Positions 6,186 to 63,631 of a stretch of DNA of 64,000 bases are shown piece after piece. The first letter of the stretch is position 1. Each line of letters opens with the position of its first letter. The notes under the pieces are model-generated. The model did not search any database, had not been told where the DNA came from, and saw only the letters and a list, made by a program, of their open reading frames with translations. The DNA comes from Patescibacteria group bacterium (GTDB lineage: Bacteria > Patescibacteriota > JABMPQ01). The stretch is taken from NCBI GenBank assembly GCA_041749335.1, contig JBGTBM010000010.1, positions 142,039 to 206,038 of the forward strand, given 5' to 3'. Made by a program: the position numbers and the translations under genes.

Positions 6186-8114
6186 TTATTTTTTATCCTT
6201 TTTTACATCTTCGCCCCGGCCTTTAACATTTTCTTCAGGTTTTGTTTTATCTTTATCGTCTTGTTTCCCCGCATTTTTGTCAGCTGCTTGTCCAGCTTGT
6301 TGATTTTGCTGTGCGGCTTGATACATTTGCTGGCCGACTTTTTGAATCTCTTGGCTTAATTCATCCGCTGCTTTTTTGATTGCATCCACGTCATCGCTAT
6401 CTTTTACTTTCTTCAATGCTTCAACTTTCTCTTCGACAGATTTCTTGACTTTTTTATCAACTTTATCACCGGCATCTTTTAATGTTTTTTCGGTAGAATT
6501 TACCAATGTTTCCGCATTGTTTTTAATTTCAATCTTTTCTTTCTTTTTCTTGTCTTCTTCGGCATGCTCTTCCGCATCTTTTTTCATCTTTTCAACTTCT
6601 TCCTTAGAAAGACCGGTGGAGCCTTGAATAGTTATGCTTTGCTCCTTGTTAGTAGCTTTATCAATCGCTTTTACGTTTAAAATACCATTGGCATCGATAT
6701 CAAAACTAACTTCTATTTGAGGCACTCCGCGCGGTGCCGGAGGAATTCCATCAAGCATAAATCTTCCCAGCGATTTATTATCAGCCGCCATTTCTCTTTC
6801 ACCTTGCAAAACATGAATTTCTACGGATGGCTGGTTGTCGGCTGCCGTAGAAAATATCTGTGATTTAGAAGCCGGAATAGTCGTATTTCTTTCAATTAAT
6901 GGAGTTCTTACTCCACCCAATGTTTCAATACCTAAAGTTAAGGGAGTAACATCTAAAAGCAAAACGTCCTTAACATCACCCCTCATTACTCCGCCCTGAA
7001 TAGCTGCGCCCATGGCAACTACTTCATCCGGATTTATTCCCTTATGCGGCTTCTTGCCAAATAAATCCTCAACCGCTTTTTGAACTGCCGGCATTCTGGT
7101 CTGGCCACCGACTAATATTACTTCGTCGATATCCGATGTATTTAACTTCGCATCTTCCAACGCCTTTTTAGTAGGTTCCAATGTTCTCTGCACTAAATCC
7201 GCAGTAAGTTCTTCTAATTTAGCGCGTGTTAATTTTATGTTCAAATGTTTAGGTCCGCTTGAATCAGTAGTAATGAATGGCTGGTTAACATCAGATTCCA
7301 TTGTTGTTGACAGCTCGTGCTTTGCTTTTTCTGCAGATTCCTTTAGCCTTTGCAGCGCCATTTGGTCTTTAGATAAATCGATTCCCTGGTCTTTTTTAAA
7401 CTCTTCAATTAGCCAGTTAATAATTTTCTGGTCAAAATCGTCTCCCCCCAAATGAGTGTCTCCATTAGTAGCTTTAACTTCAACTGTATTATCGCCTACT
7501 TCCAAAACCGACACATCGAACGTTCCACCGCCCAAATCGTAAACCACAATTTTCTCTTCTTTCTTTTTATCAAGCCCATAAGCCAAAGCTGCGGCCGTAG
7601 GTTCATTAATTATTCTTTTAACATTTAGGCCGGCAATCTTTCCTGCGTCCTTGGTCGCTTGCCTTTGCGAATCGTCAAAATAAGCGGGGACGGTAATAAC
7701 CGCGTCCTCAACTTTTTCTCCCAGATAATCTTCCGCATCCACTTTCATTTTTTGCAAGATCATGGCGGAAATTTCTTGAGGCGTATGATCTTTTCCATTC
7801 ATTTCAACGATAATGCTGCCGTTTTTCCCCTCTTTGATCTTATATGGCATTAACTCAATATCTTTTTTTGCATCCTCATCAGAATATTTTCTACCGATGA
7901 ATCTTTTTACAGAAAATATGGTATTTTGTGGATTAGTAACGGCTTGCCTTTTTGCAAGCTGCCCCACAACTCTTTCTCCATCAGATTTTATGGCTACCAT
8001 TGAGGGCGTGGTTCGATTGCCTTCTTTATTTTCAATAACTTGCGCCTCTCCGCCCTCAACTACGGCCATAGCCGAGTTGGTGGTGCCCAGATCTATTCCT
8101 AATATTTTTGACAT
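6186..8114 (-). CDS. dnaK: Chaperone DnaK (Hsp70).
   Basis: [43 protein letters not shown] motifs. Confidence 0.97.
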
Positions 8115-51215: not shown

Positions 51216-53120
51216 TTAAATATTTTTTATTCTGACCAAGGTCCATGCTCCGCCCTCGCCTTCTTTAACCAATTGAAGTAATTTTACTTCATATTCCTGG
51301 CCGTTATGCTCCACTCTTACTCGCGCCTCTCCGTCCTCGGATAAAAATAGATCAAATACATCAGTTTCGTTATCCAGGCCAAATTTTTCCGGAAGTTCTT
51401 CTTGCACTACCTTGACCGGATCTAATCTCCATTGCTCCTCGCCATCTTCAACCGCTTTTTGTTGTTGCTTGATATCAATAATGTTGTAGGGAAAAACTTC
51501 TTTACTCGCGGATGAATAGCTTTCCTCCCAAACTCCTTCTCGATATTCATAATAGATTACATCTTTGTCGGCAAAATAATCATTGCCGTCCGCCAGCTTC
51601 CATTGATAGCCCTCCGGTTGAAATGATGCGGTTACGTCGCATTTTATCTTACTTTTTTCATTTATGCAATGCAATAACAATCTGCGCGCATTAGCATTGT
51701 CCCCGTATTCAACATAATAGTCCGAATCGGTAACATAACCGATTTTAGCCGCTCGCCAAAATTCATTTTCCTGCGGCTCCTCAACCGCTAGAATATTAAT
51801 GTTTTTTTCAATATATTTAAATACTTCCGTTAAATTTATTTTAGGCGCTGATGATTCTGCTTCCGCTGCGGCCAGGGACTGCCAGTTCAAATCCTTCGGA
51901 ATTTCTATCGTTTGTAATATTTTAATATAATCATTCTTATCTCCGGCTTCTCGACGATATATAACCTCTGACTGTTTGGCTTCAATATCGGCCTTGATTA
52001 TTTCAGAATACACACCCCTTTGGCTATCAACGAAATAAATATATTTATTGGTTTTATCCCAAAATAGGTCAAAAATTTGGTTGCTGCTATCACTGGTTTC
52101 ATAGATCACTTCCGGCTTGGAGCCATTGCTTTCAATTATTTCCACCGTAATTTTTTTTATTTTATCATCATCGGAATAAATAATATGATTATAGGCGATA
52201 AATTTTCCATCGGGCGACCAGCGAAGTTCATAAATATTGCCCGTCAAGCTCGCTAAGTCGGTAAATTCCCCCACTTCGCTAATTTTTTTGATTTCGGTTT
52301 TTTTAATGATATCCCCGGACATCACTTTATCCAAATAGACCATAGCATCATCACCGGGAGAGATTGCGATAGGCTTTACTTCCCATAAATAATCCCAAGA
52401 AACATTTCTCCATTCTACTCCGCGGAAGGCGGGAGAAATTATTGATCCTTGAATTTTCGCTTGATTGAGCCGATACTCGGAATTGTCATATTTTTCTAAA
52501 TAATGAAACTTGTCGCCCGCGGCGTTAAAACCTTGATAATGCACCGGGTGCAGATTGGCGGCCGGAGCTACTAATTCGCTGGCTACTCCATTTTCGTTAT
52601 GAAAAACCCAATAAGAATATTCTTCATTATTATAAGAACGCAAATAAGCCACCGTGCTATAATCCGGAGACATCCAAATTCCCATAGGGTAATAATCTTT
52701 TGAAAAGGAAGCAATTTTATTTTCCGAAGCCCCCTTAAAGTCTGCCGCCCACAAAATCATATGATTTAAATCATCCTGTTTTTCTCCCGGTTCGTAATAA
52801 AACAGATTTGTTTTGGTGGCTTGAGGATTGGCCATAATAGAAACGTCGTGCGCGATATCAATGGTAAATTTTTGCTCCCCGATTGAATCGATAAAATAAA
52901 TATCGCCCCACTTGGTTTTATCTTTATCAATATACTTCTCGCCGATCAACAAGGCGGATTTATCCAAAGAATTGTCTTGCGTTATCTTTTCATTATAATC
53001 ATCCTTTTCTTGATCATATTTTTCTTTGTAGTATTTCCAGCCATAAAAAAATCCCACCGACATTCCTCCCAATACCAATATTAATATAAAATTGATTATT
53101 ACCGCTTTAAATATTTTCAT
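51216..53120 (-). CDS. Membrane-anchored hypothetical protein with TolB/PD40-like beta-propeller repeats.
   Basis: N-terminal [12 protein letters not shown]-type PD40 motif. Confidence 0.5.
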
Positions 53121-53192
53121 ATTGATTACTTTTTTTTATTTTACCAAATACATTGATTGCTCGCTAGTTGCTTTTATTAACAAATAGATAAG

Positions 53193-53223
53193 AAAAAGGG
53201 GGCAGTAGTTAAATACTGTCCCC
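53193..53223 (-). terminator. Intrinsic terminator (GGGGGCAGTA-gttaaa-TACTGTCCCC plus T5) directly downstream of the GC-rich gene.
   Basis: Perfect 10-bp stem plus T-tract on the - strand. Confidence 0.7.
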
Positions 53224-53303
53224 TGGAAGGTGCTAGGCGAGATATTCGGATGAATAGTTGACTTCCTCAGAATGAGTTGGTCGGAAAGATCAAATCTAGT
53301 GCG

Positions 53304-54743
53304 CTAGCAGTTGTAGCGCCGCTTGCTGTCGGCGACCTCGCCGAAGGTAGCGATGGCTGCCTTGCGACCATTGCCATCGGCGTAGACCTGGACGTCCTTC
53401 GAGTCGGCATGTCCGAAGCTGAAGCTGTTGCGGGCCTTGAAACCGCGGCCCCGCTGGTTCTGGCTTTTCTTCCCGCCGTTGGTGTTTCCGGACTCGTAGC
53501 GCTCGGCATCCCGCTCGTACTTCTTGGCCACTGCCTTCTCGACAGCGACCGAGAGCGGAGTCGTCCAGGCGTCTCGCTCGTCCTTGCGCGGGACTCCCCG
53601 AAGGATGTTCCCGCAGCGGCTGCAGAGAACCACCGGCTTGTTCTTCACCACCGGCTTCCCCTTGTCGTCGAGAACGACCTGCCCCTTGAGGTTGCCCTGC
53701 TTGTGCACGATCCGCATGGGCTGCCAGGAGATCCACATCTTGGGAAGTGGAATGTCCTCGCCGGCGCGGTTGATGAGAATGACCTTGTCATCCTCGTCTC
53801 GAGCCACGTCAGCCATCGTCCCCCGCTCGGAACAGTGGGGATTGGAGCAGACGTGGACATCCTTGGCATCGACCTTTGGCAGGAAGACGGGCGGACAGTT
53901 GTTCTCGTCCAGCAGGCCGTCGAACAGGTCGCGGGCCCACTGGCGCGAGAGATCGTTCGCGCTCGGTGTTCTCTGATCTTCCTCCTTCTGGTCGCCGGAC
54001 TCCACGTCCATACCGACCATGAAGGCGTCGGCCTGAGACAGAAGCTTCTGCTCGCGCAGGTGCTCCTGCTCCTCACGCCGGAGCCTCTGCTCCTCGGCCT
54101 CCTGAGACATCTTCTGGATCTTCGCTTCCGCCTCCTGCTGCCTGTGCGCCTCTTCGTCCTTGCGCTGCTTGTACTTGCGCTGGGCGTAGGAGAAATCGAG
54201 GAAGATGTCGTCGCGGCCGAAGAATCGCATGAGCTGCGAACGACAGTCGGGGCAGACCGGGAACGGTCCACCGCCATCCTTGAGAGTCAGCAGGCGGGAC
54301 TGGAAGGCCTTCGCGAGAGCGAACTGCTTCTCCTCGAGAGGAGAGCGTTTTCCGCGCGTGATGCGAGTGACCTCCGCCATCTTGGACGGATTCACCGTCT
54401 TCACGCACTCCGGAGTTCCTTCGCTTCCCATCACCATCTCCTTCCCGCAGTCGGGACGAGCGGCGCAGATCACGGTCTTCTCGGGGTCGTAGTCGAGCTG
54501 GCGTTCGGCCGGCACGACCTCGGCCTTGGCTAGGCGCCTCTCTTCGTTTTTCTTGGCCTTGGCGGCGGCTTGAACGCGACGCCTGCAGTGGGAACAGAAG
54601 CCATCGGGATCGTTGTCGTTCCAGTAGTTCTTGCAGGGGTTGCCCCCTTTCGTCACTCCCGGACACATCTTGCCATCGGAACGCTTTGGTGACATCTCAC
54701 ACCTCTTTTTACTTCTTGGTGTTGTGGTTTTATGAACAGACAT
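53304..54743 (-). CDS. Compositionally foreign (~65% GC) gene encoding a Lys/Arg/Glu-rich multi-Zn-ribbon coiled-coil protein of unknown function. Likely start at Met17 (54695), which has the SD AAAGAGGTG.
   Basis: The GC jump is confined to 53230-54700. CxxC pairs (CSHC, CPDC, CSNPHC, CSRC). Long uninterrupted frame, with alternative-frame ORFs typical of high-GC coding DNA. Own terminator downstream. Confidence 0.6.
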   Translation of the reverse strand: MSVHKTTTPRSKKRCEMSPKRSDGKMCPGVTKGGNPCKNYWNDNDPDGFCSHCRRRVQAAAKAKKNEERRLAKAEVVPAERQLDYDPEKTVICAARPDCGKEMVMGSEGTPECVKTVNPSKMAEVTRITRGKRSPLEEKQFALAKAFQSRLLTLKDGGGPFPVCPDCRSQLMRFFGRDDIFLDFSYAQRKYKQRKDEEAHRQQEAEAKIQKMSQEAEEQRLRREEQEHLREQKLLSQADAFMVGMDVESGDQKEEDQRTPSANDLSRQWARDLFDGLLDENNCPPVFLPKVDAKDVHVCSNPHCSERGTMADVARDEDDKVILINRAGEDIPLPKMWISWQPMRIVHKQGNLKGQVVLDDKGKPVVKNKPVVLCSRCGNILRGVPRKDERDAWTTPLSVAVEKAVAKKYERDAERYESGNTNGGKKSQNQRGRGFKARNSFSFGHADSKDVQVYADGNGRKAAIATFGEVADSKRRYNC

Positions 54744-55296
54744 TTCTGTCTGCCCACATTGTCTTTTCCGAATACCTATTATTAATGTACTTTCCCCTTA
54801 TATGCAAACAAGAAGAACCTTTTTTGGGCACTAAGCCCTCACCTCCATAAGGAAGGTCTAAGTAAGGAGGTAACTTAGACAAGGTTCTTCATATCTGAAT
54901 ATAATTTCCAAGTTTTAACTTAAGATTTTGAGAAATTATATAATCATTATTGAAAAGGTTCGTTTTTAACGCCATCTCTTTTCAGGCATCAATATTTTTT
55001 ACTATCTCAATCTTTATTGCACAAGTTTAACATATTATAATATTTATGTCAAGGCCTTTTGACATCTTTTGTCATTTTATTATCTTTTGTTTCATCTATA
55101 TTGTATTATTTTTTATAAATTATGTTTTACAATACCAACATATATTTATTAATAATGTTTTAGGCGCAGACATTTGGCGAGTTAAGTAATAGTGTTTTAT
55201 TTCTGAGTTATTGGCAGGTTAAGAACCTGCCCTACTTAAATATCTTTAAATTACATAGTTAACTGGGACTTAGTATATATATTTATTCATAAAGCC

Positions 55297-55324
55297 TTGA
55301 CAAATTATTTATATAATTTATAAT
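55297..55324 (+). promoter_or_regulatory. Consensus sigma70-type promoter TTGACA-N16-TATAAT in the gene-free AT-rich stretch.
   Basis: Exact -35 and -10 hexamers with 16-nt spacer, read from the sequence. Confidence 0.5.
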
Positions 55325-55451
55325 AAAGCCAGAATCAATGTCGGTTCTTGAGGAGAAAATAGAGGTATTACCGACATCGTGTGAACCATGACAGTTCTTT
55401 ATAAAAATTCTCCTCAAAACAAAAATACCTCGTGAAGACAAGGAGGTAAAT

Positions 55452-55526
55452 ATGTATGTGACCAGTTGGGGAAATATGTGCCGGTTTATTGTCCCCCGCG
55501 TCGCCCATTGCAGTGATGGCGGGTGA
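55452..55526 (+). CDS. Candidate small ORF (24 codons, MYVTSWGNMCRFIVPRVAHCSDGG) with a strong SD (AAGGAGGT-N5-ATG), downstream of the promoter and a structured leader.
   Basis: Found only by manual reading. No homology can be asserted. Confidence 0.2.
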   Translation: MYVTSWGNMCRFIVPRVAHCSDGG

Positions 55527-55638
55527 ATGTGTATGATATAAACTTTCATTATTTTCTTGCAACAGGCAAAACAAAAACCTCCGCTTGGAGGTTGAAGATA
55601 TATGAAGACTCTTAGTTCGCTAGGGGTCTCTTTTTTTA

Positions 55639-56403
55639 TTATTTATTAAATTTTTCCGAACCATTCCATGACAGCTCAAAAATATATTTCATAGTGTTAG
55701 CAATTTCCTGGCTCTCAATAATAACGCCGATGATTTTACCTTTATAAGTAGCGATAGCTAATTTATTGCAATAAATATTAATTTCAGCCGAAAAAGGAAA
55801 TTTATTTATCGGCACATACCTGCGATCTTTAGTCCCCTCTTTTTTTGGCAAAAAATTTCCCTTTTTGCTGGTATAAATAATTCTTTCCGGAATATTCTTT
55901 AGTTTCCGCGCCATTTCCTTGCGATGATCGGTTGGGCTGGGAGGCAATACTCGATAAACTTCATCCAAAGGAACAATTTGGTCAAGCCTCTCTACTTTGG
56001 ATTTGATCATATCGTCGCGAATTGATCTTAAACCTTCTTTCCCTTCAAAAAATCTCACCTTGGGTTTCTCTCCGCCAAGATTATACATAATATTTAATTC
56101 CGGAATTACATTTTTTATTTCTTCTTCTTTTTGCTTCAATCTAATTTGTTCGTTTTGAAGCAAATCTTTAAATTTTTCCGGAGATTCTGCGGTAAAATAT
56201 CTTTTTTTTCCCTTTTCAAAAGTTGATATTAGGCCTTTTTTCATCAAAGATTCCAATACCACATACGCCGTAGGGCGATTAATTTCCGCCTTTTTGGCAA
56301 TTTCCAAAACGCTGGCATAACCTAATTCCAAAGCTGATAAGTATATTTTTGCTTCTTTTGATTTTAAGCCTAAATTGGTTAGATCTTTGGGCAATATTGA
56401 CAT
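55639..56403 (-). CDS. TrmB-family transcriptional regulator.
   Basis: N-terminal wHTH (LGLKSKEAKIYLSALELGYASVLEIAKKAEINRPTAYVVLESLMKKGL) plus C-terminal TrmB-like domain. Confidence 0.7.
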   Translation of the reverse strand: MSILPKDLTNLGLKSKEAKIYLSALELGYASVLEIAKKAEINRPTAYVVLESLMKKGLISTFEKGKKRYFTAESPEKFKDLLQNEQIRLKQKEEEIKNVIPELNIMYNLGGEKPKVRFFEGKEGLRSIRDDMIKSKVERLDQIVPLDEVYRVLPPSPTDHRKEMARKLKNIPERIIYTSKKGNFLPKKEGTKDRRYVPINKFPFSAEINIYCNKLAIATYKGKIIGVIIESQEIANTMKYIFELSWNGSEKFNK

Positions 56404-56508
56404 GGTATTTATTTATCAAAATTTATAATACGGCATATCTTAGATAATATTATAGCGAATTTATTTATATTTATAATCACCACGTTCTTTTAATTATTTT
56501 CTTGTTCA

Positions 56509-56615
56509 ACCCTGAATCGGCGGTGGGATTCCTAACTGTGGCAATTTTTCGAACCTCTGCCTGCGGCAGACAGGCACGACTTATCCCGCTTAGCGGGTTG
56601 CTCTAGCCGATAGAT
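56509..56615 (-). other. tRNA-like fragment/pseudo-tRNA. It carries tRNA-Thr D-loop (GGCTAGAGCAAC) and T-arm (GGTTCGAA..AATCCCACCG) segments interrupted by GC-rich hairpins (CCCGC-TAA-GCGGG; CCTGTCTGCC-GCA-GGCAGAGG).
   Basis: Manual comparison with the adjacent tRNA-Thr. It does not fold as a canonical cloverleaf. Confidence 0.4.
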
Positions 56616-56659
56616 TGATTACCGTATTGAATATAATTTGCAATTTGCCTTAAATTCTT

Positions 56660-56732
56660 AGCCGACGGTGGGATTCGAACCCACGACCTACTGTTTACAA
56701 AACAGTTGCTCTAGCCGCTGAGCTACATCGGC
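56660..56732 (-). tRNA. tRNA-Thr (anticodon UGU).
   Basis: Manual fold: GCCGATG acceptor, D-arm GCTCAGCGGCTAGAGC, anticodon loop TTTGTAA, T-loop GGTTCGAATCC. Confidence 0.85.
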
Positions 56733-56735
56733 ATT

Positions 56736-56818
56736 TGGGCCGGGCAGGACTCGAACCTGCGTAGGCCGAAGCCATCAGATTTACAGTCTGACCCAGTTGA
56801 CCACTTTGGTACCGACCC
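56736..56818 (-). tRNA. tRNA-Tyr (anticodon GUA), type II long variable arm.
   Basis: Manual fold: GGGTCGG acceptor, anticodon stem TCAGA/TCTGA with loop CTGTAAA, variable hairpin, T-loop GGTTCGAGTCC. Confidence 0.8.
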
Positions 56819-57291
56819 ATCTTATAAATTTTTAATAAACCCGCCACCGGATTTAAGCCCGCGACTTTTCCCTGTCTAAAATATAGCTCTGAATTAGTAA
56901 AAATCAGAGTCAGTTCTAGAAAAATGTTGTTAGTTATTAACACAATTAAATCTAACATATATAATTAAGCGCATCAAGAGAAATATAATTATTATTTAAT
57001 ATGAAATATTTTAAGATAGAAAGTTTTTTAGATTAATAAACATAAAATTGTTTATAAATTTTGCCATGTATTTATTGTTTGCGGTTGTTTTATCATACCA
57101 CTCCTAATATTCCTACTCTTGTATTACAATAAACCAAATATTTTCAGTATTTATAAATGTTTTCAACTTAAAAAATATAAATGCGCTCGCCATTATTAAA
57201 TTGTTTACCCGATAAACCTAGATATTGTTTTAATAAAAGTATTATGTTTTAATAAAAGTAAAAGTTATTCACACTTTTTAAAAATTAAGTC

Positions 57292-57594
57292 TTGAATATT
57301 TCATTAATTTTTTATATTATTATGAATAAATTAAATTTGGCAGATATAAATAAGAATAGTGATAATAATGATCGAAAATATTATTTATTTGCATTAAAGA
57401 TTATTGGTGATTTTGGAATCGCTATTGCCGCCCCGGTAGTTATAATGGTATTAATCGGCCAATACCTTGACGAAAGATACCACCGCCAAATTTTATTTAC
57501 TATTTTGGGTTTTATTTTAGCCGCTTTGCTTTCCACATTGATTATCTACCGTAAAGCTAAAAAATATGGTGAACAATACCAGAAACTGAAATAA
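57292..57594 (+). CDS. atpZ: AtpZ/AtpI-like small membrane protein preceding the F-ATPase operon.
   Basis: Two TM helices. Position immediately upstream of atpB. Confidence 0.5.
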   Translation: MNISLIFYIIMNKLNLADINKNSDNNDRKYYLFALKIIGDFGIAIAAPVVIMVLIGQYLDERYHRQILFTILGFILAALLSTLIIYRKAKKYGEQYQKLK

Positions 57595-57600
57595 ATCTAT

Positions 57601-58377
57601 ATGCATATACCTACATTAGCTCCAGAAATACTATTTTATATCGGACCAGTGCCGATTACCAACACTATTATTAATACGTGGCTTGCGATAATTATTTTTT
57701 TAATCATAGGATTGATCCTTAGGCGAAAAATCAACCTTTATCCCGGCAAACTTCAAAATTTTTTCGAGTACGTTCTAGAATCATTATTAGGGTATTTCGA
57801 TCAAGTAACTGGCGACCGAAAAAAAACTTTACGCTTTTTGCCGTTAGTCGGATCAATTTTCTTTTTTATCCTGTTATCTAATTGGCTTGGATTAATTCCG
57901 GGAACAGGCAGTTTAACTTTTGATCATAAGATGCTATTACGTCCCGCTAATTCCGATCTAAACTTAACGGTAGCCATGGCCCTCGTCGCTGTAGTATGTT
58001 CGCATATTTACGGTATAATTTCCGTAGGAATTTTTACCCATTTAAATAAATTTATCCAGATTGGCACATTAATTAAAAGTTTGCGCAAGGGACCTATCGC
58101 TATTTTTACCGCCATTATTGAATTAGCGGTTGGGGTTATTGAATTAATTAGTGAAATGGCTAAAGTTTTATCTTTATCGCTTCGACTGTTCGGCAATATC
58201 TTTGCCGGCGAAGTATTAATTACCGTAATTGGCAGCCTTGTGGGTTTATTGGTTCCTACCCCCTTTATGCTGCTGGAAATATTAGTCGGAATCATCCAAG
58301 CTAGCGTTTTTGCAATTTTGACTTTGGTATATTTAACCGTTGCCACTACTGAAGTTGAAAGTCATGAAGAAGCTTAA
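57601..58377 (+). CDS. atpB: F0F1 ATP synthase subunit a.
   Basis: Conserved Arg in LSLSLRLFGNIFAGE. 5-6 TM. Confidence 0.9.
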   Translation: MHIPTLAPEILFYIGPVPITNTIINTWLAIIIFLIIGLILRRKINLYPGKLQNFFEYVLESLLGYFDQVTGDRKKTLRFLPLVGSIFFFILLSNWLGLIPGTGSLTFDHKMLLRPANSDLNLTVAMALVAVVCSHIYGIISVGIFTHLNKFIQIGTLIKSLRKGPIAIFTAIIELAVGVIELISEMAKVLSLSLRLFGNIFAGEVLITVIGSLVGLLVPTPFMLLEILVGIIQASVFAILTLVYLTVATTEVESHEEA

Positions 58378-58449
58378 TTTCAATAGCTTATTAATTAAAA
58401 CGGCGTCAGCGGAGCGAAGTAAAATAACCAATCCCCCTTCGTTCTAAAG

Positions 58450-58692
58450 ATGTCAGAAAGGATTAAAAATATGGATCACGAATCAATTGTCGCAATCGCT
58501 AAAGCATTTACAATGGCAATCGGAGGCTTCGGTCCTGCCCTAGCAATCGGCAGACTGGTAGCAAAAGCGATGGAAGCGATTGGACGCAATCCGGAAGCAT
58601 CTGGAAAATTATTTGTACCTATGCTGTTAGGCGCGGCTTTCGCAGAAGCGATTGCAATTTATTCTCTAGTGGTAGTTTTTACTTTGAAGTAA
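58450..58692 (+). CDS. atpE: F0F1 ATP synthase subunit c.
   Basis: Two-helix hairpin GLGPALAIGRL..AFAEAIAIY with the conserved carboxylate. Confidence 0.9.
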   Translation: MSERIKNMDHESIVAIAKAFTMAIGGFGPALAIGRLVAKAMEAIGRNPEASGKLFVPMLLGAAFAEAIAIYSLVVVFTLK

Positions 58693-58805
58693 TCCCCTTG
58701 ATTAGGTCTTTGCTAAATAAAGGCCTAATCAAATAGGACTATTTCAGAAATATCATGGTTTAAAAAACTAATCGATATTATTGCTAGTAATTAATTTAGA
58801 TCAAG

Positions 58806-59372
58806 ATGAATTTGTTAAACATCGCCTTGGCCAATGAAACAACTGCAGAAAATATAGCCAATACTGAAGAAGGACTATTGGCATCATTGGGAATAAACGG
58901 CACCTTATTTATTTTTCAGTTAATTAATTTCGCTGTAGTCGCATTGATTCTTTGGTTTTTAATTCTTAAGCCGCTTACCAAAAAAATGTCAGAGAGACAA
59001 AAATTGATTGATAAGAGCATTGAACAAACTAAAGAAATCGAAAAGAATTTATCTCAAAGCGCAGAACAATATCAAGTTAAAATGACTGAAGCAAAAAAAG
59101 AGGCAAATAAAATTATTGCGGCAGCACAGCAGGAAGCGATAAAAGCTACAAATGTCGTTAAAGATAAAGCGCAGCAGGATATTGAGCGAATAAAAGAACA
59201 GGCTAAAAACCAGATAAATAAAGAAAAGGACATAGCGAGGCAACAAGTAAGAGATGAAGCCGCTAGTATGATAACAGCCGCTGCAGAAAAAATAATAACT
59301 GCCAAAATCGACGAGCACCAAGATAATCAATTGATTAAACAGATTATTGGTGATTTAAAAATAAAATCATGA
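58806..59372 (+). CDS. atpF: F0F1 ATP synthase subunit b.
   Basis: N-terminal TM plus a long charged helix. Operon position. Confidence 0.8.
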   Translation: MNLLNIALANETTAENIANTEEGLLASLGINGTLFIFQLINFAVVALILWFLILKPLTKKMSERQKLIDKSIEQTKEIEKNLSQSAEQYQVKMTEAKKEANKIIAAAQQEAIKATNVVKDKAQQDIERIKEQAKNQINKEKDIARQQVRDEAASMITAAAEKIITAKIDEHQDNQLIKQIIGDLKIKS

Positions 59373-59761
59373 AAAAAAATACTATCAGGCAATATGCGCA
59401 AAGCCTATATCAGATAACCAGAAATGCTGCTCCAAAACAGCTGCCAGAAATAACTAAACAATTTTTATTTTTACTTACTCGCCACCACCAATTAAATAAA
59501 ATTGATTTTATTATCAAAGAATTTGACCAATACGCTAAAGAACAAGAAGGTATTCAAGAGATCACCATTGAATCAGCTTCAACCATTAATTCTGAAAATT
59601 TACAAAATATTAAAAAAATTTTTGGTGGTGAAAATACAATAGTCCATAGCACGATTAAACAAAATATCATCGGCGGCATGCGCCTAATAAGTAAGAACTT
59701 GATTTTTGATGCCACACTTAAAAAACAACTGCAAAAACTAAAAGAACATCTTAGTAGATAA
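59369..59761 (+). CDS. atpH: F0F1 ATP synthase subunit delta (OSCP), short form.
   Basis: C-terminal ..IIGGMRL.. motif. Overlaps atpF by 4 nt. Confidence 0.7.
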   Translation: MKKNTIRQYAQSLYQITRNAAPKQLPEITKQFLFLLTRHHQLNKIDFIIKEFDQYAKEQEGIQEITIESASTINSENLQNIKKIFGGENTIVHSTIKQNIIGGMRLISKNLIFDATLKKQLQKLKEHLSR

Positions 59762-59783
59762 TATAATTTAAGATATACCCATT

Positions 59784-61277
59784 ATGTCAACAAACTCAAT
59801 TATAGAGGAACTTAAAAAAAATATTTCCTCTTTCAAAAAAGAAACTGCCCAAGAAGAAATTGGTACGGTCGTAGAAGTAGGAGATGGAATTGCTCGCTTA
59901 CAAGGTTTAAACAATTGCCAAGCTAGCGAAATGTTGGAATTTTCCGGCGGTACCTATGGAATGGCTTTAAATCTTGAAGAAGAAACTGTAGGTTCAGTGT
60001 TACTTGGTGAATACGAACATATAAAAGAAGGTGACACGGTTAAGCGAACCGGCAGAATTCTTTCGGTGCCAGTCGACGAAGAATTAATCGGCCGAGTAAT
60101 TAATCCGCTTGGCCAACCAATTGATGGTGGCCCGGAATTAAAAATTAAAAAATTTTATCCGATTGAAAAAATTGCCCCGGGAGTAATTACCAGAGAACCA
60201 GTCAGCCAGCCGGTACAAACAGGAATCAAAGCAATTGATGCCATGATTCCGATCGGACGAGGACAGCGAGAATTAATTATCGGCGATCGGCAGACCGGTA
60301 AAACAGCAATCGCAATTGATACGATCATCAACCAAAAAGGGCAAAACATGATTTGCATTTACGTAGCTATCGGCCAGAAGGAATCAAAAATTGCTCATTT
60401 GGTAGCAAAACTAAAGGAAGCAGGAGCGATGGACTACACTATTGTAGTGGTCGCTGGTGCTTCTCAACCTGCCTCCCTTTCTTATATTGCTCCCTATGCC
60501 GGCGTGGCTATTGCGGAATATTTTATGGACCAGGGCAAAGATGTTTTATGTATTTATGATGATCTCTCAAAACAAGCCTGGGCATATCGAGAAATTTCTT
60601 TATTATTGCGCCGCCCTCCCGGACGCGAAGCTTATCCCGGGGACGTTTTTTACTTGCATTCACGCCTATTGGAGCGCGCTTGCCGACGCAATAAAGAATC
60701 TGGCGGCGGCTCAATTACCGCTCTACCGATTATTGAAACGCAAGCCGGAGATGTTACTGCCTATATTCCTACTAATGTGATATCGATTACCGACGGACAA
60801 ATTTTTCTAGAAACCGACCTTTTTTATCGCGGCATCAGACCCGCTCTTAATGTTGGAATTTCTGTTTCCCGCGTTGGCGGCGCCGCCCAAATTAAACCGA
60901 TGAAAAAGGTGGCCGGAAAATTAAAATTAACCATGGCGCAATTCCGCGAACTGGAAGCTTTTGCCCAATTTGCCAGCGATCTTGATCCGGAAACCAAAAT
61001 GCAGATTGAACGCGGACAAAGAATTACCGAACTGCTGAAACAACCGCAATATTATCCTCTACCCGTCGAACATCAGGTAGCTGCTATTTTTGCCGTTGAT
61101 AATGGCTTTTTTGACCAGATAGAGCTTAAAAATATTTCTGCCGCCGAGAAAAATTTGATTGAATTTATGGAAAAAACTAAGCGGTCTTTATTAGATAAAA
61201 TCGCCCAGGGAGAATGGGATGATAAAATCGAACAAAATTTAAAGGACGCTTGTCAAGAATTTATTAAAAGCAATTAA
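59784..61277 (+). CDS. atpA: F0F1 ATP synthase subunit alpha.
   Basis: P-loop [11 protein letters not shown]. ..[16 protein letters not shown].. region. Confidence 0.97.
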
Positions 61278-61279
61278 AT

Positions 61280-62236
61280 ATGGCTGTTAATACTAAAGCA
61301 ATAAAAAGACGGCTGCGTTCCGTCGGCAGCACAAAAAAGATTACCAAAGCCATGGAAATGGTTGCTGCTGCTAAAATGCGCAAGGCAGTCAATGCCGCTT
61401 TGGAAACACGCACCTATGCTAAATTGGCTTGGGATCTTTTAGTTAGCCTATCTAAAACCCAAAAAGCAGCTATCCCCCTTTTGCAAGTTAGGCCGGTAAA
61501 TAAATTATTAATTATTTTAGTAACATCTAACCGCGGCTTATGCGGAAGCTTTAACGCGAATATCATCCGAAAAACTGCCAAGCAATTAGAAGATCCCCGC
61601 CTAATAAGCCGGCACCGAATTAAAAATCAAGATATTTCTCCCGCTAGCAAAGAAATTGACGTAGATATTATCGGGATTGGCAAAAAAGGTGCAGATTTCG
61701 CTAAAAAGACCGGTAATAATTTGATAGCTTCTTTTACTAATTTATCCGACACTCCTAAACTTAACGATGTTTATCCAATAAGCCACTTAGCTATCCAAAA
61801 ATACTCTGATCAAAAATACGATAAAGTTATTGTAGCTTATACTGAATTTTATTCAGCGATATCGCAAATTGCAAAATTACGTCAAGTTTTACCTATATCC
61901 GAAAATGATTTGGAAAAAATGATAACTGATATAGATAATACCGAATCGAAATTACAGCCGGCAGAAACTGATTATTTAGAAGATTTTTTATTTGAACCTA
62001 GCCGTCAGGAAGTACTAAAAACAATTTTGCCTCGCCTGGTGGAAACACAAATATACCAAGCATTATTGGAATCAGCCGCGAGCGAGCACAGCGCGCGAAT
62101 GCTAGCTATGCGTAATGCCAATGAAGCGGCGGAAGATATGGTTGAAGAATTAAATCTGCATTACAATAAAGCGCGCCAAGCAATAATTACCAGAGAAATC
62201 GCGGAAATTGCCAGTGGAGCAGCCGCTTTAGAATAA
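61280..62236 (+). CDS. atpG: F0F1 ATP synthase subunit gamma.
   Basis: N-terminal IKRRLRSV..KITKAMEMVAAAKMRKA and C-terminal ..ITREIAEI.. motifs. Confidence 0.9.
   Translation: MAVNTKAIKRRLRSVGSTKKITKAMEMVAAAKMRKAVNAALETRTYAKLAWDLLVSLSKTQKAAIPLLQVRPVNKLLIILVTSNRGLCGSFNANIIRKTAKQLEDPRLISRHRIKNQDISPASKEIDVDIIGIGKKGADFAKKTGNNLIASFTNLSDTPKLNDVYPISHLAIQKYSDQKYDKVIVAYTEFYSAISQIAKLRQVLPISENDLEKMITDIDNTESKLQPAETDYLEDFLFEPSRQEVLKTILPRLVETQIYQALLESAASEHSARMLAMRNANEAAEDMVEELNLHYNKARQAIITREIAEIASGAAALE

Positions 62237-63631
<1,395 letters not shown>

Follow-up and report, generated by a model that had tools for sequence, protein, structure and literature searches.

A conserved spacer beside a TrmB-family gene of a patescibacterium, read as a control region with two divergent transcription units

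In the 64,000-nucleotide (nt) stretch of contig JBGTBM010000010.1 analysed here (the window; Patescibacteria group bacterium, assembly GCA_041749335.1), a spacer at 54696-55638 separates a GC-rich orphan gene from a gene for a TrmB-family regulator. Our reading, to which we give a probability of roughly 0.7, is that this spacer is a conserved control region, overlooked by annotation, with two oppositely directed, divergent transcription units. On the plus strand, a monocistronic RNA of ~308 nt would run rightwards from a promoter at 55297-55324 and end at a hairpin with a run of seven T residues (T7) by the TrmB stop codon, carrying a real small gene for a peptide of 22-24 residues. On the minus strand, a leftward mRNA from a promoter at 55052-55024 would begin with a leader of ~320 nt and then enter the GC-rich orphan gene. 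The gap would resolve into a micro-protein family, a 105-nt RNA motif and a candidate operator of two divergent promoters near a TrmB-family regulator. Small-protein gene, cis-acting RNA element and candidate operator are known categories, and the members found here, in three lineages so far, are without described relatives.

Conservation of the spacer

Genomes of the candidate phyla radiation (Patescibacteria-type) are very small and densely packed, and in the compact genome studied here the median gap between long open reading frames (ORFs) is 39 nt across the window. The spacer is the longest gap, at 895 nt by the ORF list and 943 nt when measured from the actual start of the GC-rich gene at 54695. 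Its centre (54800-55400) has a GC content of 0.27 compared with 0.377 (~38%) for the whole window, and the ORF list contains no spacer ORF above 88 amino acids (aa), nor any with a Pfam match. The initial annotation had described a long gene-free AT-rich stretch at this position, and this description was borne out.

Relatives of the GC-rich protein supplied contigs of three further genomes, L008, L009 and L018 (the last being the same as L019 and L020). All share with the window a gene order of tRNAs, TrmB, spacer, GC-rich gene, a 634-aa beta-propeller protein and L33, with spacers of 750-950 nt. Identity to the window is 98% for TrmB and 81% for the GC-rich protein in L009, 87% and 51-52% in L008, and 89% and 37-38% in L018. 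The four genomes were counted as three independent lineages, L009 being almost the same as the window. A Logan contig of 1.5 kb that matches the window exactly also encodes the identical TrmB protein.

Among the three lineages, four-fold degenerate sites are saturated, with an identity of only 0.25-0.40. The alignments nevertheless contain discrete conserved spacer blocks, split by unalignable, indel-rich, AT-rich DNA. Because four-fold sites are saturated, the conserved non-coding blocks point to selection acting on them, and a 0.9-kb spacer that is kept under these conditions is therefore costly and presumably important. The initial annotation had proposed to examine conservation and covariation of the leader in relatives; the blocks, the small ORF and its leader helices are kept in all four genomes. 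The features of the locus are collected in Table 1.

Further relatives were sought in several ways. Metagenome pattern scans gave 0 matches, apart from 4 chance matches in unrelated GC-rich contigs, viral scans gave 0 matches, and a genome scan with TrmB recovered distant loci only, without this locus arrangement. Contigs of 70%-identity TrmB relatives stop 45 nt past TrmB; among relatives at 53-57%, L013 lacks a gap of this kind past TrmB, and the L012 contig stops 146 nt beyond that gene.

Independent short-read assemblies were observed to break in or at the edge of the spacer, with L001 ending at window position 55223 and L006 at 55251. Two contigs assembled from one sample share 29 nt (55223-55251), where indels are frequent between the window and L009, and the contigs of the more distant relatives L010 and L011 end 45 nt after TrmB. 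These breaks suggest strain-level variation or repeats in the spacer. A perfect 8-bp hairpin, GGCAGGTT-AAG-AACCTGCC, lies at 55214-55232 in a non-conserved part of the spacer and occurs in the window and L009 only.

Table 1. Positions of predicted and observed features of the locus, in window coordinates unless a contig is named.
Feature	Position	Strand	Observation
GC-rich orphan gene, 463 aa	53304-54695	−	100% identical to P0001, same start ATG 54695
Copies of the orphan gene in other contigs	L008:8001-9422; L018:1708-3108; L021:34-1509		
Second conserved leader hairpin (predicted)	54732-54757	−	RNAalifold on four sequences, 11 pairs
Three-way-junction RNA element (predicted), 105 nt	54799-54903	−	95% mean column identity across lineages
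Predicted promoter of GC-rich gene, TTGACA-N17-TGnTAAACT (extended −10)	55024-55052	−	10/12 consensus match plus TG
Palindrome ATGTCAA-N6-TTGACAT, candidate operator	55046-55065		both halves conserved in four genomes
Predicted promoter of small-ORF transcript, TTGACA-N16-TATAAT	55297-55324	+	12/12 consensus match
Structured 5' leader (predicted), ~121 nt	55331-55451	+	59/60 pair cells pair
Leader helix A	55338-55345 with 55370-55377	+	conserved pairing
Leader helix B	55348-55354 with 55411-55417	+	conserved pairing
Shine-Dalgarno (SD) sequence AAGGAGGT	55440-55447	+	upstream of small ORF
Small ORF, 24 codons + TGA (22 codons in L008)	55452-55526	+	conserved SD, ATG and TGA
Predicted intrinsic terminator of TrmB gene, AACCTCC-N4-GGAGGTT + T-tract	55566-55593	−	terminator scan
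Predicted intrinsic terminator of small-ORF transcript, 10-bp hairpin + T7	55606-55640	+	terminator scan
TrmB-family gene	55639-56403	−	convergent with small unit

The small transcription unit and its peptide

The case for a translated small gene comes from comparison of the small ORF among the four genomes. Its SD, ATG and TGA are kept in all of them, and the encoded peptide (MYVTSWGNMCRFIVPRVAHCSDGG in the window and L009, MYMTRGMRRFMIPRVAHCSEGG in L008 and MFTDRWGSMCRFTIPRVAHCSAGG in L018) follows the consensus …M-x-R-F-x-[IV]-PRVAHCS-x-GG, with a C-terminal half, R-F-x-[IV]-P-R-V-A-H-C-S-x-G-G, that is invariant. Nucleotide changes fall mostly at third codon positions; over the 14 C-terminal codons, differences at first, second and third positions number 3/0/8, 2/2/7 and 1/2/4. 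Arginine codons change from CGN to AGA by synonymous double substitutions, L009 differs from the window by two changes that are both synonymous, and the length difference between lineages is an in-frame 6-nt indel. The antisense frames contain a stop in L008 or are far less conserved, and have no conserved start. Judged by a conserved SD, start and stop, purifying selection on the peptide and in-frame indels, we conclude that the ORF is a predicted translated small gene. The SD-led, Cys-containing ORF of 24 codons proposed in the initial annotation was thus confirmed as a conserved feature, in contrast to the CCCGC..GCGGG hairpin described within it, which is lost in L008 through a CGC to AGA change. 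An alternative genetic code with UGA read as Gly was considered and rejected, given that TGA ends 5 of the 56 long ORFs and that the ORFs are intact under table 11.

The transcript that would carry this ORF has its own predicted promoter. A perfect TTGACA-N16-TATAAT is found at only four places in the 64 kb, and the one upstream of the small ORF, recognized from the outset as a textbook promoter, is kept perfect in the window, L009, L008 and L018. Taking −35 and −10 hexamers spaced by 16-18 nt and conserved in relatives as the mark of a sigma70-type promoter, both this site and the minus-strand site discussed below are predicted promoters of that type. Transcription of the small unit would start at ~55331, giving a 5' leader of 121-128 nt in the four genomes. 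In this leader 98% of the cells of the two helices pair, with one compensatory pair per helix and G-U variants that fit the plus strand. The repeats that form them had been described as nested. The pair GTCGGT/ACCGAC was correctly placed at 55340/55370, and TTGAGGAGAA/TTCTCCTCAA is also present, although at 55348/55408, one base away from the 55347 first given; the repeats are interleaved (55340<55348<55375<55417), not nested. Helices A and B cross, so the leader, expected to fold into the two interleaved helices, would adopt a pseudoknot or alternative states.

The folded leader may also reach the ribosome-binding site (RBS). A short, conserved AYCUC segment at 55429-55433, 8-14 nt upstream of the SD, is predicted to pair with it, and folding each of the four leaders singly left the SD partly paired every time (probability of being unpaired 0.20-0.39). 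Given this pairing, folding of the leader probably acts as a gate on peptide synthesis.

At the other end, the hairpin and T7 run span 55606-55637, as the initial annotation had noted for the T7 run, and the terminator abuts the TrmB stop codon. L009 keeps the stem under another loop, in L018 one A-T pair of it is replaced by G-C, and the wobble pairs of the stem fit the plus strand only. A GC-containing hairpin that is followed by a U-tract and whose stem is kept by compensatory change is what we took to define an intrinsic terminator, and the hairpin at 55606-55640 is predicted to be one. The hairpin CCTCC-GCTT-GGAGG upstream of it is present, at 55578-55591. It is the predicted minus-strand terminator of the convergent TrmB gene (hairpin 55576-55593), lying inside the 3' untranslated region (UTR) of the small-ORF transcript; its stem is conserved, its loop varies, and the L009 variant in the stem forms a wobble pair on the minus strand only. 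A 15-codon ORF reported in the same region is not conserved, its ATG being ATA in L008. Apart from the terminators, the 3' UTR is not conserved, and this includes the sequence of the 42-49 nt between the small-ORF stop codon and the first hairpin.

Short independent transcripts and dual-function small RNAs (sRNAs) that encode small proteins include SR1/SR1P of Bacillus, RNAIII/delta-hemolysin and SgrS/SgrT (PMC3526287, PMC12310071, PMC12612679). Like these, the small unit is a short stand-alone transcript with its own predicted promoter and terminator, an SD-led ORF of less than 50 codons kept as a peptide, and conserved structured untranslated parts. It differs in that the locus has no sequence or structural similarity to them (Rfam), in that its peptide has only 22-24 aa, and in having been found so far only in four metagenome assemblies, all from one small lineage. 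Neither the peptide nor the orphan protein had a match in Pfam, NCBIfam, PADLOC, PHROGs or PDB sequences.

The leftward leader and a candidate operator

The promoter predicted on the minus strand keeps its TTGACA, 17-nt spacing and TGnTAnnCT in all four genomes. A transcript starting at ~55017 would give the GC-rich gene a leader predicted at 322-339 nt in these genomes, ahead of the real start codon, ATG 54695, which has an SD (AAGAGGTG) upstream. Within this leader lies the three-way-junction element, with a 21-bp closing helix, a P2 hairpin with the loop UACCUCCUU, a P3 helix CUUCC/GGAGG and a P4 helix GGGC/GCCC. All 152 of the 152 cells of its 38 pairs pair on the minus strand, compared with 88.8% on the plus strand, where the mirror structure leaves 17 unpaired cells, and this difference fixes the strand of the element as minus. 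Three pairs are compensatory on the minus strand and six more vary on one side through G-U. A covariance model of the element scored ~120 bits on the minus strand versus ~35 on the plus strand and found one copy per genome. Variation in the second conserved leader hairpin consists mostly of one-sided G-U changes. A long hairpin at the start of the leader was dismissed, being significant in L018 only.

The P2 loop copies what we take to be the canonical 3' tail of 16S rRNA with its anti-SD (ACCUCCUU), the host 16S rRNA itself lying outside the window. P3 contains a perfect SD-like GGAGGUGA ~150 nt upstream of the real start codon. The element would display an anti-SD copy in a hairpin loop while holding an SD-like sequence in a helix, and most likely it controls translation or stability of the GC-rich gene mRNA. 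In each of the four genomes an in-frame GUG or AUG is conserved 9-10 nt past GGAGGUGA. The corresponding upstream ORF was not adopted, as it ranges from 13 to 33 codons and its substitutions are mostly at first positions, as RNA pairing predicts.

Leaders that sequester the SD to control translation include RNA thermometers and translational riboswitches. Both conserved RNAs of the spacer resemble them in placing SD-like and anti-SD-like segments so that pairing is possible; they differ in matching no aptamer or thermometer fold, and in that the sequestered GGAGGUGA is ~150 nt above the start codon. In a further group, ribosomal-protein mRNA leaders mimic rRNA sites, and bS21 (rpsU) of Flavobacteria is autoregulated through SD/anti-SD pairing (PMC9976891). 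The junction leader is comparable to this group in having both a canonical 16S 3' tail copy and a perfect SD-like sequence, a likeness in sequence alone, and differs in its downstream product, an orphan zinc-ribbon/coiled-coil protein that resembles no ribosomal protein. A covariance-model search of Rfam 15, at gathering thresholds and at E<=10 on both strands of window 53000-57400, L008 6000-10000 and L018 800-1800, matched no known RNA family, with only far-sub-threshold chance matches in the spacer.

The palindrome ATGTCAA-N6-TTGACAT is unique in the window at <=3 mismatches, and its halves stay conserved in the four genomes while its spacer and flanks vary. Its left half (55047-55052), read on the minus strand, is the −35 of the minus-strand promoter. 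No conserved −10 accompanies the other half on the plus strand, which makes an operator the better reading of the palindrome. Two operator-like sites had been listed in the initial annotation, of which this one stands; the other, AAGAACCTT/AAGGTTCTT, is present at 54813/54881 but is no operator, being part of the closing helix of the junction element and hence RNA structure on the opposite strand. The promoters of the two units also share the motif AAAG-N2/3-TTGACA, which occurs nowhere else in the 64 kb. The palindrome over the −35 and this shared motif suggest that one dimeric regulator acts on both units, and the adjacent TrmB-family protein would be the obvious candidate.

Inverted repeats are recognised by TrmB-family regulators, an example being TATCAC-N5-GTGATA, the TGM site of Thermococcales. 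The candidate operator is comparable in being a 6-7-nt inverted repeat with a 6-nt spacer that overlaps a promoter beside a TrmB-family gene, but its half-site differs in sequence. The half-site is also the −35 consensus, and part of its conservation is therefore explained by the promoter itself.

Alternative readings and the neighbouring genes

Several observations weigh against a control region of two units. Promoters, transcript ends and translation were all predicted from the DNA sequence. The comparison spans only three independent lineages, and covariation thus rests on 2-3 pairs per element, with shuffle controls for the RNA elements that are just moderately strong (8/500 and 24/500). 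Assigning both leader helices would take more sequences, a pseudoknot or a switch being possible. The N-terminal third of the peptide is variable. In the small ORF the Gly codons and the TGA (GGCGGGTGAAT) are invariant, a hint of a further constraint at the RNA level. The link to TrmB is one of adjacency only, and the palindrome is not repeated near the TrmB gene.

Of the interpretations offered in the initial annotation, a small-protein locus is the one that the conservation of ORF, SD, ATG, TGA, promoter, leader and terminator supports. It is rather unlikely, though worth weighing, that the ~308-nt transcript is a dual-function or purely regulatory sRNA that works chiefly by base-pairing, for instance via its GAGGAG, CUCCUC or GGAGG segments, the ORF being secondary or incidental. 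Such a role would suit a unit with its own promoter and terminator, a structured and conserved leader and no downstream gene, whose 3' end overlaps that of the TrmB transcript; moreover, the junction loop UUACCUCCUU is complementary to the small-ORF RBS over 8-10 nt in each genome. However, an anti-SD-like loop is expected to complement any SD, and a duplex search on the two full-length RNAs gave nothing informative beyond this generic SD/anti-SD complementarity. The substitution pattern of the ORF is that of a translated sequence, and the 3' UTR is not conserved except for the terminators. We regard as very unlikely a leader-peptide attenuator, in which translation of the 24 codons would set read-through of the terminator into the antisense strand of TrmB. 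The order of SD-led short ORF, hairpins and T-run is what such a device would have, and read-through would yield RNA antisense to TrmB. Yet there is no same-strand gene downstream, the next gene, TrmB, being convergent; the stretch from ORF to terminator is not conserved, no conserved alternative antiterminator pairing was found, and the first hairpin is the predicted TrmB terminator on the other strand, its L009 variant wobble-pairing on that strand only.

The small gene might instead encode a precursor of a ribosomally synthesized and post-translationally modified peptide (RiPP) or a bacteriocin-type peptide, as had also been suggested. The peptide is short, has Cys and Ser and ends in Gly-Gly, and proteins with a Peptidase_C39_2 domain are encoded ~8 kb away. 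Against this, the neighbouring genes in each of the four genomes are TrmB, the orphan gene, the beta-propeller protein and L33, with neither a modification enzyme nor a transporter next to the small gene. A leader-core layout is missing, as the peptide stops at the GG, and no NCBIfam or Pfam precursor family matched even at E<=10; this reading, too, we regard as very unlikely. The least probable readings are a type I toxin-antitoxin pair and a decayed pseudogene or junk spacer. Type I toxins are indeed small peptides from long AT-rich spacers, but this peptide is polar or charged throughout, with no hydrophobic span, and a promoter-like site on the minus strand (55562-55533) lies in non-conserved sequence, leaving no conserved antisense promoter. 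Junk is excluded by the discrete blocks, which are 91-95% identical although synonymous sites are saturated, and the spacer ORFs have no Pfam match. The preferred reading remains a control region with a small-protein gene on one side and a structured leader on the other.

The GC-rich gene downstream of that leader had been labelled foreign (53304-54743). A recently acquired gene should be absent from the same position in relatives, or have a composition still decaying toward that of the host. Syntenic orthologs were found in all relatives instead, and the GC content of third codon positions (GC3) is 0.82 in the window, 0.71 in L008 and 0.68 in L018, with 0.74 in the distant family member L021, compared with 0.25-0.38 in neighbouring genes. 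Given saturated synonymous sites, the bias is being kept up and is no leftover of a recent transfer. The neighbour is an old resident whose codon usage is persistently inverted, for which ordinary amelioration is no explanation. Family members have 463-491 aa, 55-62% GC overall and a GC3 of 0.68-0.82; relatives are few: a word-indexed search gave 2 clusters, and at 50% identity 1.84 billion representatives contained 5. The protein has zinc-ribbon-like Cys motifs and a predicted long helix, and its AlphaFold model (pLDDT 45) was too poor for a fold search. It is under purifying selection but evolves fast, with a ratio of nonsynonymous to synonymous substitution rates (dN/dS) of 0.25 versus 0.03 for TrmB.

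Similarity between the window and L009 is mosaic. The block at ~53500-56480 is mostly 77-97% identical, and its part at ~54200-56480, with the 5' part of the GC-rich gene, the spacer and TrmB, reaches 91-97% DNA identity, except for the indel-rich spacer stretch 55088-55386 (0.78-0.84); dS is 0.28-0.43 for the GC-rich gene and TrmB. The ATP synthase operon (56800-62600), by contrast, is 65-83% identical with a dS of 1.6-3.7. This contrast in identity and dS implies that one of the two segments was recently exchanged between species. The pattern fits a block of GC-rich gene, spacer and TrmB that would act as a unit whose parts travel together. A more far-reaching version, which we consider distinctly unlikely, would make TrmB, the 24-codon gene, the junction leader and the orphan gene a self-contained module exchanged between species, in which the leader mimics the 16S 3' tail, the products act on translation initiation or the ribosome, and the inverted codon usage of the orphan gene is actively kept as one element of its control.

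Some observations were made outside these units. A tmRNA remnant or integration site was considered for the spacer and rejected, there being no tmRNA or tRNA-like signal in it. In L004 a same-strand tmRNA gene (7202-7542) follows a distant TrmB homolog (45% identity) at a distance of ~460 nt, an arrangement unrelated to that of the window. A Saccharibacteria-labelled genome (L002:4932-6149) has a 1.2-kb gene-poor stretch downstream of a TrmB homolog (51% identity), with a direct repeat of ~85 nt and a segment of 55-60% GC; this stretch does not resemble the window spacer and matched nothing in Rfam. On the other side of TrmB, tRNA-like fragments occur on the minus strand at 56440-56560, between the TrmB start and tRNA-Thr(TGT) at 56660-56732. 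They comprise a D-arm copy of tRNA-Thr and a T-arm/acceptor end broken by 17 nt, with a conserved hairpin CCTGYCTGCC..GGCAGG among them, and were not called by ARAGORN or Rfam. Similar tRNA-like pieces stand beside tRNA-Thr in L011 (483-660).

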